A stretch of 33,007 nucleotides of DNA, taken from positions 1-33,007 of IMG/VR virus record IMGVR_UViG_2547132254_000003; one strand, given 5' to 3'. Each line of letters starts with the position of its first letter. Position 1 is the stretch's first letter. The notes under the pieces were generated by a model, which made no database searches, had not been told where the DNA came from, and saw only the letters and a program-made list of their open reading frames with translations. Positions 5,688 through 22,524 of the stretch are shown piece by piece. Both the position numbers and the translations under genes were made by a program. This DNA is from a virus. Lineage: Duplodnaviria; Heunggongvirae; Uroviricota; Caudoviricetes.

Positions 5688-6044
5688 TTACTCGAGAGGA
5701 AATTGGTTATGAATACAATCAAGTTTTCTTGCCCAGAATGTGGTGGCGAAGTCTTTGACACATCCTTTAAGCCGCAGGGCTCTGACAGTTTCGCGGGAGC
5801 CATCTGCAAAAATTGTGGTCACCTTGTAACTGAAGATGAGTCCTCGCAGTTCGATGACGAAATCGTTGACAATATCTTCGGTGCACTCACCAGAGACTTT
5901 CTGAAATAAAGACGCATACCGCTTAGTTACCGCTCTGATAACTCTTACCTGTCCGGCAATGGCGCTGATGTCAATATAAAGCGCCATTGCTGCTTCTTTG
6001 CCGATCCCGTGATGCCTTCCATTCTGATGTTTGACTTCGCCCAC
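5688..6044 (-). CDS. Hypothetical protein, 118 aa; would be the first gene of the leftward early operon
   Basis: GTG start with AGAGGA upstream; operon context supports it, but it overlaps a plausible + strand zinc-ribbon ORF, so one of the two is probably not real. Confidence 0.3.
   Translation of the reverse strand: MGEVKHQNGRHHGIGKEAAMALYIDISAIAGQVRVIRAVTKRYASLFQKVSGECTEDIVNDFVIELRGLIFSYKVTTIFADGSRETVRALRLKGCVKDFATTFWARKLDCIHNQFPLE
5709..5909 (+). CDS. Small zinc-ribbon protein, about 66 aa (alternative to the overlapping - strand ORF)
   Basis: CPECGG ... CKNCGH four-cysteine motif with zinc-ribbon spacing; acidic C-terminus; GAGAGGA about 9 nt upstream of the ATG at 5709. Confidence 0.3.
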   Translation: MNTIKFSCPECGGEVFDTSFKPQGSDSFAGAICKNCGHLVTEDESSQFDDEIVDNIFGALTRDFLK

Positions 6045-6233
6045 TGAGAAATCCTCTGTTTCCCCTTAACGCCGGGGTAGCGGAACAAAAACCTGCTGCA
6101 TAGTTATTAAAGTTGAACCCTGCCGTCATGTTCTTACGCCTCGGGCTGGCTACTTAACCCCTGACCACTGCCTGGTAACTCGAAGTATTGCCCTGCATTC
6201 TGTGGGGCGGGGTGGGTTGGTATGAAAAGAAGG

Positions 6234-6271
6234 ATACCCATAGGTATTTAAAAAGTAAATACCCATGGGTA
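6234..6271. promoter_or_regulatory. Putative left operator (OL) palindromes
   Basis: ATACCCATAGGTAT (6234-6247) and TACCCATGGGTA (6260-6271) are palindromes with TACC/GGTA arms, located just downstream of the repressor gene's 3' end and upstream of the leftward operon. Confidence 0.35.
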
Positions 6272-6313
6272 AATTTTTGCGGTGTCTTAACTGGTGACTA
6301 GTTGTTTGGTGAG

Positions 6314-6733
6314 CTATGATGCGTTTTGTGCTTTCTTTTTACGGATTTCTTCGTAGATCATATTGTAATACTGTTTTTTCTCTTCAAGAGTTTTTAATAA
6401 TTTATCCGCTTCACTTTCTGGCAGTTCGTCTAAGAGATCTAAAAAAATACGTTGTCGTGGCGTTAGAACCCTTGTTTCATAACTGGAGGCTGTGTTCGTT
6501 GATGATGAAACGATACCATCCATCCATCCCCGGGGTAACCCAAAGGACTCTTCGATAATCTCCACCATATCATCAGCGATCCGTTTTTTTCCCTTTTTCC
6601 CCTCTGGGTACAACATTCTTGATACATAAGAAGGCTCGCGCCCGATCTTTCTGGCCACGTTAACCGCTTTACCATCGCATTTCTCATCACGAATTTTGAT
6701 GAGTTGCTGTCGTCTAAATTCATATTTGTCCAT
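6314..6733 (-). CDS. Prophage repressor (CI/RacR-like HTH protein), 139 aa
   Basis: Divergent from a Cro/YdaS-like gene; flanked on both sides by TACC-n-GGTA palindromes; N-terminal region has HTH-like character. Family from context and motif reading. Confidence 0.65.
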   Translation of the reverse strand: MDKYEFRRQQLIKIRDEKCDGKAVNVARKIGREPSYVSRMLYPEGKKGKKRIADDMVEIIEESFGLPRGWMDGIVSSSTNTASSYETRVLTPRQRIFLDLLDELPESEADKLLKTLEEKKQYYNMIYEEIRKKKAQNAS

Positions 6734-16478: not shown

Positions 16479-16554
16479 GGCCCTTTAGCTCAGTGGTGAG
16501 AGCGAGCGACTCATAATCGCCAGGTCGCTGGTTCAAATCCAGCAAGGGCCACCA
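16479..16554 (+). tRNA. tRNA with anticodon CAU, Ile2 (lysidine)-like, 76 nt, CCA encoded
   Basis: Cloverleaf folds by eye; anticodon loop CUCAUAA; close to my memory of E. coli ileX. Ile versus Met cannot be decided from the anticodon alone. Confidence 0.75.
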
Positions 16555-16555
16555 G

Positions 16556-16632
16556 CCGCCACTAGCTCATCAGGAAAGAGCGTCAACCCTTTAAGTTGAG
16601 TGTGCGAGGTTCGAGTCCCCGGTGGCGGTCCA
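16556..16632 (+). tRNA. tRNA-like gene, 77 nt, noncanonical anticodon loop; identity uncertain
   Basis: All stems pair except one A-C mismatch in the T-stem; anticodon loop CCUUUAA has C at position 33 (normally U), giving nominal anticodon UUU; begins with C1-G72. Confidence 0.5.
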
Positions 16633-16634
16633 GT

Positions 16635-16710
<76 letters not shown>

Positions 16711-16713
16711 TAT

Positions 16714-16788
<75 letters not shown>

Positions 16789-17672: not shown

Positions 17673-18206
17673 ATGAGCGCAAAAATCAAATACGGCCTGT
17701 CAGCTGCTGTTCTGGCGCTGATTGCTGCAGGCGCGTCTGCTCCTCAAATACTTGACCAGTTTCTGGATGAAAAAGAGGGTAACCACACTACGGCATACCG
17801 CGATGGTTCCGGTATATGGACCATCTGTCGTGGTGCCACAATGGTGGATGGTAAGCCCGTCATACCGGGAATGAAGCTGTCGAAGGAAAAATGCGACCAG
17901 GTTAACGCTATTGAACGTGATAAGGCGTTGGCATGGGTGGAGCGCAATATTAAAGTACCACTGACCGAACCACAGAAAGCGGGTATAGCGTCATTCTGTC
18001 CCTATAACATTGGCCCCGGTAAGTGTTTCCCGTCGACGTTTTATAAGCGGCTGAATGCCGGTGATCGTAAGGGCGCATGCGAGGCGATTCGCTGGTGGAT
18101 AAAAGATGGTGGGCGCGATTGCCGCATACGTTCAAATAACTGCTATGGACAGGTTATTCGTCGTGACCAGGAAAGCGCATTAGCCTGTTGGGGGATAGAT
18201 CAGTGA
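17673..18206 (+). CDS. SAR endolysin (T4-lysozyme-like, phage 21 R type), 177 aa
   Basis: N-terminal signal-anchor-release hydrophobic segment ([15 protein letters not shown]); catalytic spacing E-x8-D-x5-T ([16 protein letters not shown]). Confidence 0.85.
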
Positions 18207-18670
18207 GCAGAGTCGCAGCGATTATTTATACTCTGGTTATCTGCACCATCGTCTGCCTGTCGTGGGCGGTCAATCATTACCGTGATAACGCCATCGCCTA
18301 CAAAGAACAGCGTGATAAAAAAGTCAGTGAGCTGAAGCAGGCGACTGCCACCATCGCTGACATGCAACAGCGTCAGCGTGATGTTGCTGCGCTCGATGCA
18401 AAGTACTCGAGAGAATTAGCCAATGCGAAAGCTGAAAATGAAACTCTGCGCGCTGATGTTGCCGCTGGTCGTAAGCGCCTGCGGGTCAATGCCAGTTGCT
18501 CCGCAGCCGTGCGTGAAGCCACCGGACCCACCAGCGTGGATAATGCAACCAGCCCCCGACTGGCAGACACCGCTGAACGGGATTATTTCACCCTCAGAGA
18601 ACGGTTGATGACGATGCAGAAGCAACTGGAAGGGGCACAGCTATACATTCGTGAGCAATGTCTCAGATAA
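18203..18670 (+). CDS. Rz-like i-spanin, about 155 aa
   Basis: GTG overlapping the endolysin stop; N-terminal TM helix then coiled-coil-rich periplasmic domain; contains an embedded Rz1-like ORF. Confidence 0.7.
18423..18608 (+). CDS. Rz1-like o-spanin (outer-membrane lipoprotein) embedded in Rz in a different frame
   Basis: Signal peptide with lipobox VVSAC; proline-rich mature part; entirely within Rz. Confidence 0.65.
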
Positions 18671-18848
18671 AAAACGGCCAAGGATAATCCGCTAAAGATT
18701 CGCCGGTGGCGAAAGAGAGCCAAGGTGTCAACCTACGCTATTACTTATGATAATGCAACAGACGAAGCGGGACATTCAGGTGCATAACAAAGCGTGGCAG
18801 GTGAACTGCAAACCTGAAAAGGCGCAAAAATCTGCGCCAGAATGGTAG

Positions 18849-19334
18849 TTATTTTGTGGTTTTGAAAAGTTTCATGTACTGATTGATAGGTTTTCCTGAG
18901 TAAGAATCTGTCCCTGGCTCAGGAGTATCAGATAAAACTTTTGCAGCTAATTTGTTGGAGGCTTGATTACCAACCCCGACAATAGCCTCTACATAGAATT
19001 CATTGAAGGAATTTCTAAATCCGTATTGCATTTCTTCAATGCTGGCGATGAGAAGTTGAGTACCGATGCCTTGCGCTTTATATTCATCGGCTACTGCATA
19101 GCCAACGCCAAAGCATGGTTTACCTTCAACAAACTCTGCAGGGACATATATAGCAACACCTTTAACATTTTCTCCTTCAAAGAATGCATAAGTAAACCGT
19201 GGTGTACCCTCTGCATCATCCAAAAGCACCTTCATATTTGGGTGAACTATGCATGGTGAAGGCTTAATCAGACCATTAGAAAAGGCGTATTGAAAACTAA
19301 TTAATGAGTCTGTTGGATCAACGAGTTCTGGCAT
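18849..19334 (-). CDS. GNAT-family N-acetyltransferase-like protein, 161 aa (reverse-strand moron)
   Basis: Candidate acetyl-CoA-binding motif AQGIGTQLL; AT-rich gene and flanks; opposite orientation to the lysis and packaging genes; no partner ORF upstream. Confidence 0.55.
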   Translation of the reverse strand: MPELVDPTDSLISFQYAFSNGLIKPSPCIVHPNMKVLLDDAEGTPRFTYAFFEGENVKGVAIYVPAEFVEGKPCFGVGYAVADEYKAQGIGTQLLIASIEEMQYGFRNSFNEFYVEAIVGVGNQASNKLAAKVLSDTPEPGTDSYSGKPINQYMKLFKTTK

Positions 19335-19578
19335 TTTGAGTCCTATGTATTTTGATATAAGCGATTCAACATACTACTTTCTTACGTTTAATTCTTTAAC
19401 ATTAACGAGCCAGGATTCGAAATTTTGAAAAAGAGTAAAGTTTTTAATAATTCATTCAAAGCATATCGCATGTGCACATCTAAGAAAGGCTTTCAGCTGT
19501 GAGCCTGGGTAAACCGTAAACTTTCGGCGACTCTGCCGTGCGACAGGTTCACGTCTAACATGTCTAAAAGGAAGAGTT

Positions 19579-19779
19579 ATGAAGTTTCAGGTCGCTAAAC
19601 TGTATCGTGGTAAACATTTCGCAGGGTATGGGATTGCAGTTGATGGTGAGTTACTGGAAGGGCAGCTTTCCGCCAGGACAGAGTCACGCGGAGGCGAGCC
19701 ACCAACAGTCACTGTGACTTTCAGACTGACAGCAGAACATATCGAGAATCAGCCCGTCATTCAACTGAACAGGGGGTGA
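19579..19779 (+). CDS. Hypothetical protein, 66 aa
   Basis: ATG with AAGGAAGAG upstream; directly precedes the HNH endonuclease gene. Confidence 0.45.
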   Translation: MKFQVAKLYRGKHFAGYGIAVDGELLEGQLSARTESRGGEPPTVTVTFRLTAEHIENQPVIQLNRG

Positions 19780-19786
19780 GGTATTT

Positions 19787-20137
19787 ATGCCATCACGAAT
19801 CCCACGCGCCTGCCGTAAGCGTGGATGTGCAGGTACAACCACAGACAGTTCTGGTTACTGCGATAAACATCGTGGCGAAGGATGGGTACAGCATCAACGC
19901 GGACTGAGCCGCCACCAGCGTGGCTATGGCTCGAAATGGGATGCCATACGTGCGCGCATACTGAAGCGTGATAATCATCTGTGTCAGAACTGCCTGCGCA
20001 ATGGGAGAGCCGTTGAAGCCAGAACTGTGGACCACATCATTCCGAAAGCTCATGGTGGCACGGATGCAGACAGTAACCTGCAGAGTCTGTGCTGGCCCTG
20101 TCATAAAGCAAAAACAGCGCGCGAACGCATCAATTGA
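19787..20137 (+). CDS. HNH endonuclease (terminase-associated), 116 aa
   Basis: CxxC ... HIIPKAHGG ... CWPCH motifs; located just upstream of the terminase small subunit as in HK97-like phages. Confidence 0.8.
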   Translation: MPSRIPRACRKRGCAGTTTDSSGYCDKHRGEGWVQHQRGLSRHQRGYGSKWDAIRARILKRDNHLCQNCLRNGRAVEARTVDHIIPKAHGGTDADSNLQSLCWPCHKAKTARERIN

Positions 20138-20284: not shown

Positions 20285-20767
20285 ATGTCTGGACCCCCGA
20301 AAACCCCGCCACGCCTGCATTTGATACGAGGTAACCCCTCAAAGCGGCCAGTTAAAGACTCCAAAAAAACCGCTAAAAAGGATGAAAAAGGTCTCCCTAA
20401 AATTCCGCAACATTTAGGGGCGCAGGGGAAGTACTGGTTCAGGCGAATGGCGGAAGAGCTGAATGCGGAAGGGATCATTTCTCAGCTCGATGCACGTGCG
20501 CTCGAGTTACTGGTGGAAGCCTACACCGAATACCGGCATCACTGCGAAATACTCGATGTTGAGGGTTATACCTACCGCACGGAAACGCAGAATGGCGATG
20601 TGCTGATCAAGGCACACCCGGCTGCTGCGATGAAGGCTGATGCCTGGAAGCGGATTCGGGCGATGCTTGCAGAGTTTGGTATGTCACCGGCAAGCCGGGC
20701 GAAAGTAAATACCGCCGGACCGGATGATGTTGATCCGCTGGCAGAGCTTTTAAAAGCGAGAGACTGA
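20285..20767 (+). CDS. Terminase small subunit (P27/HK97-like), 160 aa
   Basis: Basic N-terminus; position directly upstream of and overlapping the large terminase gene. Confidence 0.7.
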   Translation: MSGPPKTPPRLHLIRGNPSKRPVKDSKKTAKKDEKGLPKIPQHLGAQGKYWFRRMAEELNAEGIISQLDARALELLVEAYTEYRHHCEILDVEGYTYRTETQNGDVLIKAHPAAAMKADAWKRIRAMLAEFGMSPASRAKVNTAGPDDVDPLAELLKARD

Positions 20768-22524
20768 TGGCAAAAGTGGCTGACGGGATCCGCTACGCCG
20801 AACGTGTTGTTGCAGGAGAAATTGTTGCTGGCGAATTTGTCCGTCTGGCCTGCCAGCGTTTTCTTGATGATCTGAAGTACGGCGAAGAGCGGGGGATTTA
20901 TTTCAGTGAACCTCGTGCACAGCACATCCTTAATTTCTACAAATTTGTACCCCATGTGAAAGGGGCGCTGGCAGGTCAGCCCATTGAGTTGATGGACTGG
21001 CATGTGTTTATCCTCATTAATATTTTTGGTTTTGTCATTCCGCTGGTGAATGAAGAAACCGGGGAAGTTGTCATGCGCAGCGATGGCAGTGGACGCCCGG
21101 TGATGGTGCGCCGGTTCCGGACAGCATACAACGAAGTTGCCCGTAAAAACGCAAAATCAACCCTGTCATCGGGTATCGGTCTGTATATGACGGGGGCAGA
21201 TGGTGAAGGCGGGGCTGAGGTGTATTCAGCCGCAACCACGCGTGATCAGGCCAGAATCGTGTTTGAAGACGCCAAAAATATGGTCAGAAAAGCCCGGTCG
21301 ACACTCGGGCGGTTGTTTGACTTCAACAAGCTGGCGATTTACCAGGAGCAGAGCGCATCAAAATTTGAACCGCTTTCCTCGGATGCAAACAACCTGGACG
21401 GTCTGAACATCCACTGCGCCATTATTGATGAACTGCATGCTCATAAAACCCGTGACGTGTGGGACGTTCTGGAAACGGCAACCGGTGCCCGTCTGCAGTC
21501 TCTGTTATTTGGCATCACCACGGCTGGCTTTAACAAGGAAGGGATTTGCTACGAGCAGCGTGATTACGCCATCAAGGTATTGCGAGGCTATAACAGCGAC
21601 GTGGAGGGCGCGGTAAAAGACGACTCCTACTTTGCGATCATTTACACGCTCGATGAGGGAGATGATCCGTTTGATGAAACGGTCTGGCAGAAAGCGAATC
21701 CTGGCCTGGGCATCTGTAAACGCTGGGATGATCTGCGTCGTCTGGCGAAAAAAGCGAAGGAGCAGGTCTCTGCGCGGGTGAATTTTTTTACCAAACACAT
21801 GAATGTGTGGGTCACTGCCGAATCTGCCTGGATGGATATGATTAAGTGGGAGAAGTGCGAATACATTGCTCCACAACATGAGCTGAAAACATATCCCATG
21901 TGGGTCGGCGTAGACCTTGCTCATAAGATTGATATCTGTGCGGCGGCAAAACTATGGCGAACCGATAACGGACATGTTCATGCTGATTTTAAATTCTGGC
22001 TTCCGGAAGGACGGCTGGAGCGATGCTCGCGGCAGCAGGCAGAACTTTACCGGAAGTGGGCGGAGATGGATAAGCTCATCCTGACGGATGGTGATGTTAT
22101 CGATCATGCTCAGATAAAAAGTGACTTACTGGAATGGATTGGCGGTGAAAACCTCAGGGAACTGGGATTTGACCCGTGGAGCGCAATGCAGTTCAGCCTG
22201 GCACTGGCTGAAGAAGGGATACCGCTGGTGGAGGTTCCGCAGACGGTCCGCAATCTGTCAGAGGCCATGAAGGAAACGGAATCACTGGTTTATGCCGGGC
22301 GTTTCCATCACAGCAATCATCCGGTCATGAACTGGATGATGTCTAACGTTACGGTAAAACCGGACAAAAACGACAACATCTTCCCGAATAAATCCACGCC
22401 TGAAGCCAAAATCGACGGCCCTGTTGCGCTTTTTACGGCCATGAGCCGCTTTCTGGTAAATGGCGGGGGCGTGAATGACTTTCTGTCCACGCTTGATCCT
22501 GATGAGGACCTGTTAATTCTGTGA
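20767..22524 (+). CDS. Terminase large subunit (HK97-like), 585 aa
   Basis: Size, ATPase-like N-terminal half and nuclease-like C-terminal half; ATG overlaps the TerS stop. Confidence 0.85.
   Translation: MAKVADGIRYAERVVAGEIVAGEFVRLACQRFLDDLKYGEERGIYFSEPRAQHILNFYKFVPHVKGALAGQPIELMDWHVFILINIFGFVIPLVNEETGEVVMRSDGSGRPVMVRRFRTAYNEVARKNAKSTLSSGIGLYMTGADGEGGAEVYSAATTRDQARIVFEDAKNMVRKARSTLGRLFDFNKLAIYQEQSASKFEPLSSDANNLDGLNIHCAIIDELHAHKTRDVWDVLETATGARLQSLLFGITTAGFNKEGICYEQRDYAIKVLRGYNSDVEGAVKDDSYFAIIYTLDEGDDPFDETVWQKANPGLGICKRWDDLRRLAKKAKEQVSARVNFFTKHMNVWVTAESAWMDMIKWEKCEYIAPQHELKTYPMWVGVDLAHKIDICAAAKLWRTDNGHVHADFKFWLPEGRLERCSRQQAELYRKWAEMDKLILTDGDVIDHAQIKSDLLEWIGGENLRELGFDPWSAMQFSLALAEEGIPLVEVPQTVRNLSEAMKETESLVYAGRFHHSNHPVMNWMMSNVTVKPDKNDNIFPNKSTPEAKIDGPVALFTAMSRFLVNGGGVNDFLSTLDPDEDLLIL

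Follow-up and report, generated by a model that had tools for sequence, protein, structure and literature searches.

Among the described systems closest to the locus reported here, bor of phage lambda and iss of Escherichia coli are single genes with expression signals of their own, variably present among near-identical prophages, and placed in reverse orientation in the slot downstream of Rz/Rz1 and before the packaging genes. The gene examined here, likewise a single gene present or absent among near-identical prophages, occupies the same position in a lambdoid prophage of E. coli with an HK97-type head and packaging module, represented by the 33,007-nucleotide IMG/VR virus record IMGVR_UViG_2547132254_000003 (positions 1 to 33,007, the whole of which is termed the window). 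It encodes a small protein of the GNAT superfamily of N-acetyltransferases. Whereas Bor and Iss are outer-membrane lipoproteins, the GNAT protein is of the type of a cytoplasmic, acetyl-coenzyme A (CoA)-dependent enzyme, and has no sequence relationship to either of them.

Several groups of described GNATs provide further points of comparison. These include the acetyltransferases RimI, Ard1 (Naa10) and RimL; the detoxifying enzymes, such as the C-terminal domain of MccE and RimL (which act on microcin C), PAT/BAR, MnaT/YncA and AAC(6'); and the anti-CRISPR protein AcrVA5, which acetylates Cas12a and is likewise a small, stand-alone GNAT of mobile elements that acts enzymatically in trans. The toxins TacT, AtaT, KacT and ItaT, which are paired with DUF1778/RHH antitoxins, resemble the present protein in their GNAT fold, similar size and association with mobile elements. 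On the evidence presented below, the gene is probably a classical moron, i.e., a self-contained transcription unit in the slot and orientation of bor and iss, and its product is best read, from its sequence, as a likely competent but uncharacterised N-acetyltransferase.

The GNAT gene and its predicted expression signals

An earlier note, made from the letters of the window alone, had described a solo reverse-strand gene for a 161-residue protein between the lysis and packaging modules, and the present calls of open reading frames (ORFs) agreed with it in both coordinates and gene order. The gene, the elements of its presumed transcription unit and the block in which they lie are as follows.

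18849-19334, minus strand: coding sequence of the GNAT N-acetyltransferase, 161 amino acids, ATG start (ORF calling; PGAP WP_001114684.1, "GNAT family N-acetyltransferase")
19341-19344, minus strand: strong Shine-Dalgarno sequence AGGA, 6 nt before the ATG, read directly
19335-19443, minus strand: AT-rich (28% GC), GNAT-specific leader and presumed promoter region, delimited by GC content and block-wise conservation among GNAT loci
19424-19429 and 19401-19406, minus strand: weak sigma-70 candidate (-35 TTCAAA and -10 GTTAAT, respectively) from a position weight matrix (PWM) scan
18816-18838, minus strand: predicted intrinsic terminator, a 7-bp stem GGCGCAG/UUGCGCC (arms 18832-18838 and 18821-18827) followed by UUUUC, -13 kcal/mol in ViennaRNA
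18671-19786, no strand assigned: variable, dispensable block from the Rz stop to the HNH start, a cargo slot of the bor/iss type, defined by homology breaks against GNAT-less relatives

The GC content of the GNAT ORF is 0.397 and that of the proximal upstream region (19335-19443, 109 bp) is 0.284, versus 0.494 for the whole window; at third codon positions the GNAT gene has a GC content of 0.30, versus 0.54 for Rz and 0.56 for terL. The AT-rich island and upstream region described in the earlier note were thus upheld for the ORF and for the proximal 109 bp, but not for the distal part (19444-19560), which has 45% GC and is not specific to GNAT loci. Three features by which a moron is recognised were found together at this locus: additional DNA separating genes that are next to each other in related phages, a base composition unlike that of the flanking genes, and a (predicted) terminator of its own. 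The description of the gene as a moron was accordingly borne out by its deviant composition, its predicted terminator and the variable content of the slot.

A hairpin and U-tract directly follow the GNAT stop codon in every orthologue examined, from E. coli, Enterobacter, Dryocola, Leclercia and Yersinia. Since the hairpins of Leclercia and Yersinia are unrelated in sequence to the other copies, terminator function, and not merely sequence, appears to be conserved. A stricter terminator scan missed the hairpin at 18816-18838. On the opposite side of the gene, an (A/G)AGGA block was kept in 11 homologous upstream regions.

Comparison with orthologues in Enterobacter, Dryocola, Leclercia and IMG/VR contigs gave ratios of nonsynonymous to synonymous substitution (dN/dS) of 0.10-0.16, which indicate strong purifying selection, and the ORFs are full-length across genera. 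The gene is therefore real and under selection. Of 5,426 complete E. coli genomes searched by megablast, 63 contain a 1.2-kb segment around the gene with an identity of at least 99%; in every match listed, the segment lies between lysis genes and an HNH endonuclease.

A cargo slot between Rz and HNH

Relatives lacking the GNAT gene were found with a query composed of the flanks only, and three architectures were observed in related prophages. Homology to these relatives ends at 18651-18669 (at 18810 in phage vB_EcoS-689R5) and restarts at 19770-19787, so that the variable block spans the whole interval between the end of Rz and the beginning of HNH and includes a plus-strand ORF of 66 codons. 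One relative (L076) has the same holin and lysozyme proteins, at full identity, as the annotated relative of the window (L001); its gap between Rz and HNH is only 42 bp, and it keeps a 28-nt internal fragment of the 66-residue ORF (L076 1528-1555). Because this fragment remains, the empty site of L076 is a deletion derivative. The variable block is dispensable.

Other genes occupy the slot elsewhere, all of them on the reverse strand. In strain uk_P46212, iss (the bor homologue) lies between Rz1 and HNH (L077 1547-1840), while phage vB_EcoS-689R5 has a YfbU-domain gene in the slot (L066 2999-3538), and a prophage of a K-12 laboratory strain has an unrelated gene for a 204-residue protein beside a Rha regulator (L067 2145-2759). 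At the junction between Rz and HNH, HK97-type coliphages have a cargo slot, in which iss, GNAT and other reverse-strand genes are exchanged.

Among enterobacterial prophages, the GNAT gene always stands alone, antiparallel to the late genes and beside packaging genes; such solo, antiparallel placement recurs in Enterobacter, Leclercia, Dryocola, Yersinia and the IMG/VR contigs. Its neighbours vary: the lysis cassettes fall into three or more unrelated types, and the packaging modules are also of several kinds. In the Yersinia loci L008-L010, a GNAT gene whose product is 46% identical to that of the window (6001-6477) lies antiparallel between terS and the presumed terL. The terS genes of these loci belong to different families (DUF2280 or Terminase_2), which suggests that the GNAT gene marks a recombination joint within the packaging module. 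One of the Yersinia loci (L009) also encodes a Mom homologue.

Family, distribution and predicted fold

The family was delimited with a sequence profile, the comparison of which with 1.84 billion cluster representatives (clusters at 50% identity) retrieved 593 representatives at E<=1e-3, of which 197 were at E<=1e-30. Nearly all of these are 155-170 residues in length and were matched from end to end. Members were found in 29 IMG/VR contigs and on 34 plasmids, of which 17 are conjugative and most come from Pseudomonas, Agrobacterium, Aeromonas and Vibrionaceae. They are sporadic in 21 species-representative genomes, extending to Acidobacteriota, Alpha- and Betaproteobacteria and one metagenome-assembled genome of the Saccharimonadales. 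The family was absent at the protein level from the 50,697 deposited phage genomes searched, and a literature search found nothing on either the family or WP_001114684. The family is a coherent and well-delimited group of uncharacterised, stand-alone GNATs, carried by prophages, plasmids and integrative elements and also present in defence islands.

Membership of the GNAT superfamily, for which the earlier note had proposed a search with hidden Markov models, is genuine: the protein matched PF00583 (Acetyltransf_1) over residues 37-132 with 27.4 bits, above the gathering cut-off of 20.7. An AlphaFold model, built from an alignment of 37 sequences, shows the alpha/beta fold of the superfamily (predicted local distance difference test, pLDDT, 92; predicted template modelling score, pTM, 0.87). 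The best profile matches in the PDB were to proteins of the Ard1/Naa type and to RimI/RimL, with the Ard1/Naa10 type first (E=6e-4); this match spans motif A to beta5 only, i.e., about 40-80 residues. A search of PHROGs gave nothing specific for the protein, and BFVD contained no close relative of it.

In a set of 163 members, with a median identity to the query of 38%, conservation is 90% or higher at P7, D39, R46 (100%), Y49, G78, A80, G89, E116, A117, N123 (100%), S126, A130, D143 and S146. Motif A, which binds the pyrophosphate of acetyl-CoA, is intact in the window protein (K86-A-Q-G89-I-G91), and in the 163 members position 86 is R, K or Q, G89 is kept in 99%, and position 91 is G or A. 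In an hhalign comparison with RimI, Glu116 falls on the catalytic Glu103, Asn123 on Asn108 and Ala130 on the general-acid Tyr115. The joint conservation of the CoA-binding and catalytic positions and of a family-specific set of residues speaks for a substrate that is itself conserved. A catalytic or metal-binding role was considered for two cysteines that showed no variation in the first alignment, and was rejected, since C28 is only 61% conserved across the family.

Two rare fusions were seen among the members: a 204-residue protein (P0138) in which the GNAT is combined with a C-terminal SEC-C zinc motif (PF02810), and a 314-residue protein (P0123), in which it is followed by a C-terminal extension of 150 residues.

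Predicted activity and class of target

According to the scheme proposed here, host RNA polymerase would transcribe the GNAT gene independently of the Q-dependent late operon and antiparallel to it, and expression would occur in a lysogen as well as from any phage DNA that enters a cell. Acetyl-CoA would be bound through motif A (R/K86-x-x-G89-x-G/A91) together with N123/S126. A primary amine would then receive the acetyl group directly, Glu116 being the putative general base, as in enzymes of the RimI/Ard1 type. Residues D39, R46 (invariant), Y49, D143 and S146, which are conserved from Enterobacteriaceae to Acidobacteriota, are tentatively placed on the acceptor side from their positions in the predicted secondary structure. 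If this placement is correct, the acceptor itself would be conserved, and would probably carry an anionic group near the amine.

We tentatively suggest that the target is a small, amine-bearing metabolite or antimetabolite, of the amino-acid or aminoacyl-nucleotide type, the protective acetylation of which would confer a fitness benefit on the lysogen, or on whatever host bears the element. This suggestion is favoured by the base rates for mobile, stand-alone GNATs and by the conserved, putatively acceptor-side signature. A protein or other macromolecule engaged in phage-host conflict is a rather doubtful but serious candidate for the target, favoured by the genomic company of the family, and the evidence cannot separate it from a small molecule. 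Acetylation of aminoacyl-tRNA, as by a toxin, is very unlikely, and the remaining probability falls to some other target.

Several observations weigh against an orthodox, autonomously transcribed detoxifying enzyme. The position of the RimI general-acid tyrosine is occupied by Ala130, and by alanine in 92% of the 163 members. The N-terminal, substrate-binding arm appears atypical as well: in the predicted model a single helix (7-19) is followed by a four-strand meander (34-81), without alpha2, and known GNATs superpose over only 110-125 of the 161 residues. In view of the alanine and the atypical arm, catalysis may depart from the textbook scheme. The same features separate the protein from RimI, Ard1 and RimL, which match it only from motif A to beta5, and it is further set apart by its location on a mobile element, outside any ribosomal or housekeeping context. 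Among the curated resistance and housekeeping models of NCBIfam there was no equivalog or subfamily match, and only an 11.6-bit fragment to Pat (cut-off 460) was obtained. The result counts against assignment to the detoxifying GNATs, for which no curated resistance model matched; at the same time, it failed to place the protein in a housekeeping subfamily. Similarity to the detoxifying enzymes is no better than to protein acetyltransferases, and the gene is not found in integron or transposon resistance contexts. Charge is not kept either, the isoelectric point (pI) being 4.8 in the window protein, versus a family median of 6.3 and range of 4.9-9.2; in view of this variation, protein charge was rejected as a clue to the substrate. 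Finally, a strict scan of the minus strand revealed no sigma-70 consensus promoter. We infer autonomous transcription rather than observe it, since the PWM candidates are weak and a consensus promoter is lacking.

Genomic company and a possible role in conflict

The alternative that survives best is that the enzyme acetylates a protein or nucleic-acid component, and serves either superinfection exclusion or defence, when expressed in the lysogen, or else counter-defence or establishment in the manner of AcrVA5. We regard this alternative as unlikely, yet it merits full consideration. In its favour, the protein N-alpha-acetyltransferases are the closest sequence-profile relatives of the GNAT protein. 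In addition, the gene lies about 1 kb from what we presume to be the right cos end. In virions of the lambda type, as known from lambda and HK97, the right end is injected first, and a position near it would suit a counter-defence or establishment function.

The remaining support for a conflict enzyme comes from relatives in other mobile-element contexts (L011, L068, L069 and L072-L075), many of which keep company with defence and candidate counter-defence genes, namely those on L069, p382, pAt2 and pAsmA; such company also speaks against detoxification. The loci concerned may be described as follows.

L068: a context of integrase, ParAB and MazEF
Plasmid p382: a long array of small, co-directional ORFs beside Pycsar
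Plasmid pAt2: a TIR protein, a second GNAT and an S8-peptidase/AAA pair
Plasmid pAsmA: an Abi protein
L069, 893-14576: ADP-ribosylglycohydrolase, PIN-PhoH, RNase H, RecA-dependent nuclease, AcrVA2-like protein and CYTH protein
L069: a complete-looking NAD-salvage set, comprising NAD synthase, NAPRTase, and nicotinamidase-like, NMNAT-like and NUDIX proteins

The island of L069, in which the family member adjoins the AcrVA2-like gene, resembles a counter-defence island of a mobile element. PADLOC matches among the neighbours in non-enteric loci included Drt3b, PycC/PycTIR and PD-T4-6, and ArdC, SSB and ParA were also present among them; this list of defence neighbours is a raw one, which reduces its weight. 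The GNAT protein itself matched none of the defence families of PADLOC-DB v2 at E<=1. No deposited isolated phage carries the family, and the literature search found no link between the family and defence. The strong conservation of the putative acceptor-side residues across phyla would also be unusual in an arms race with a variable target.

On one metagenomic contig (L015 295-4740), a SIR2_2 gene is followed by a gene for a 1,098-residue protein (P0097), in which a C-terminal GNAT domain of the family is fused to, or abuts, an Mrr nuclease and an nSTAND1 NTPase. The 119 closest relatives of this STAND protein are about 910 residues in length and lack the GNAT domain; the fusion is therefore an isolated event. 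Its value as support for a sensor domain or effector of defence was downgraded, since it is a one-off that may have resulted from loss of a stop codon, recent fusion or an artefact of assembly.

A broader form of the same idea, which we consider distinctly improbable, would make the family a previously unrecognised set of single-gene, acetylation-based conflict factors, which exclude or abort phages or neutralise a conserved component of host defence or signalling. This reading takes in the presumed position near the first-injected end in cos phages and, in plasmids, the location within arrays of small genes resembling establishment arrays. Similarly, it is a speculative corollary that convergent late transcription would silence the antiparallel GNAT gene when the prophage enters the lytic cycle.

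Search for a partner gene and the toxin question

Some GNATs are toxins of toxin-antitoxin pairs, and the earlier note had raised the possibility of an orphan toxin, while finding no convincing antitoxin ORF upstream. ORFs were called in 66 loci and all neighbours within 4.5 kb were clustered, and in the window all ORFs of at least 20 codons on both strands were considered as antitoxins. No conserved, co-oriented partner ORF was detected in about 75 loci, and in the 19 non-enteric loci no Pfam family occurred in more than 2 of the 146 neighbouring proteins. Two small ORFs lie upstream on the GNAT strand, of 29 codons (19388-19477, GTG start) and 22 codons (19493-19561, ATG start). In homologous loci the former is interrupted by stops after 6-9 codons, and the latter has no ATG; both were rejected as antitoxins for want of conservation, in accord with the earlier observation. 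Three further candidates (c71, c28 and c32) were rejected as low-complexity or antisense to lysis genes.

The only sizeable co-oriented neighbour in enteric prophage loci is an ORF of 229 codons without a Pfam match, located on the plus strand of an IMG/VR contig (L042 4129-4818), 183 bp upstream of a GNAT gene with a 54%-identical product; it was not seen elsewhere.

In the protein itself, no closer relationship to the clade of type II GNAT toxins than to other GNATs was found. No GNAT toxin structure was retrieved by sequence or profile searches, and ItaT ranked 46th, on a flat plateau. A catalytic tyrosine on alpha4 is essential in TacT and AtaT; judged through the RimI alignment, the equivalent of Y115 is here A130. 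Toxins that bind tRNA rely on basic surfaces, whereas the window protein is acidic (pI 4.8). The type II toxins thus differ from it in their adjacent antitoxins, their tyrosine and their charge, and it has no preferential similarity to them.

In the absence of a conserved partner and of any special likeness to GNAT toxins, the orphan-toxin idea is unsupported, and the enzyme is in all probability not the toxin of a toxin-antitoxin pair. An orphan toxin of the TacT/AtaT kind, which would acetylate aminoacyl-tRNA and be kept silent by regulation or by a distant antitoxin, possibly as an effector of abortive infection, is highly improbable; besides the evidence above, it must contend with an intact single gene under purifying selection in 63 complete E. 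coli genomes and in 593 family clusters, and with alanine at the tyrosine position in 92% of the 163 members. Of the original interpretation, the stand-alone modifying enzyme carried as a moron was therefore retained, while the orphan toxin was abandoned.

Flanking genes and intergenic elements

The genes and elements that flank the GNAT unit in the window are all on the late-gene strand, and are listed in order.

18188-18670, plus strand: Rz, upstream of GNAT in the window
18423-18608, plus strand: Rz1, also upstream of GNAT
18747-18848, plus strand: 33-residue ORF (...QQTKRDIQVHNKAWQVNCKPEKAQ...), what remains of the C-terminal end of a spanin-like lipoprotein; tblastn with the C-terminus of the L002 lipoprotein gave 16 identities over 24 residues, with further evidence from DNA alignment and ORF clusters
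19444-19560, plus strand: palindromic intergenic element of the late operon, about 115 nt, ending just before the ribosome-binding site of the next plus-strand gene
19579-19779, plus strand: ORF of 66 residues, function unassigned (ORF calling; no Pfam match)
19787-20137, plus strand: HNH, downstream of GNAT in the window
20285-20767, plus strand: terS, packaging module
20767-22524, plus strand: terL, packaging module

In the annotated relative L001 the order is Q, four tRNAs, holin, a DUF1327 protein, lysozyme, Rz, GNAT (reverse), the 66-residue ORF, HNH, P27-type terS, terL and portal. In the window, the tRNA array lies on the plus strand between the Q antiterminator gene and the holin gene (16479-16788), with one tRNA bearing a CAT anticodon followed by Lys-TTT, Thr-TGT and Gly-TCC. 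The first of these was called tRNA-Met by ARAGORN, while PGAP annotates its counterpart in L001 as tRNA-Ile, which implies a lysidine-modified CAT anticodon.

An intact gene for the spanin-like lipoprotein converges on the GNAT gene in prophages of Enterobacter and Leclercia. The window retains only its last 24-33 codons or so, and this remnant overlaps the GNAT terminator. Part of the remnant, up to position 18810, is also present in phage vB_EcoS-689R5, which has a different cargo gene. The remnant points to transfer of the cassette from one phage backbone to another by recombination.

The palindromic element contains a long stem, GTGAGCCTG/CAGGCTCAC, with an inner GGCAAA/TTTGCC and a small GCGC hairpin in addition. 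Of 68 sequences compared by blastn (the window and 67 loci), 38 contain it, and copies 81-89% identical to it occur in 130 E. coli genomes without the GNAT gene. In GNAT-less prophages the element lies in the sense of the late genes, with its end some 14 nt ahead of a plus-strand ATG, and the flanking genes vary; in L070 it lies in the tail module, between the tail-tube gene and a DUF1983 gene. A role as a regulatory leader of the GNAT gene was rejected on these grounds. The element had no Rfam match and showed negligible signs of a conserved RNA structure, with z-scores of -1.25 and +0.32 and a covariation term of 0.12. It may be a linker at module boundaries or for recombination, or else an element of the late transcript.

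The 66-residue ORF is present in loci of the E. coli type only, and in other genera unrelated genes occupy its place. It is part of the variable block, and not a conserved partner of the GNAT gene.

The weakest alternative, a hitch-hiking remnant devoid of current function and carried along by recombination at flanking conserved sequences, would accord with the dispensability of the block in L076 and with flanks shared with other phages (the 3' remnant of the spanin gene and the palindromic element) that could mediate cassette exchange, but is the least credible of all in the face of the low dN/dS, the full-length ORFs across genera, the conserved Shine-Dalgarno sequence and terminator, and catalytic and CoA-binding motifs that are invariant across 163 divergent sequences.

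Significance of the GNAT moron

The gene is an ordinary accessory gene, already named generically by PGAP, and belongs to two known kinds, the GNAT acetyltransferases and the prophage morons. Beyond this classification, the present analysis allows the toxin reading to be set aside, and delimits a family that is distributed on mobile elements from enteric bacteria to Acidobacteriota, in which a catalytic signature and a set of putatively substrate-side residues are conserved. It also leads to the recognition of the Rz-to-HNH junction as a cargo slot. The GNAT gene is a compact and testable candidate for a function in enzymatic lysogenic conversion or in conflict; if it proved to act on a component of defence, on a phage protein or on an antimicrobial, the family would provide a compact, easily testable example of lysogenic conversion by an enzyme.

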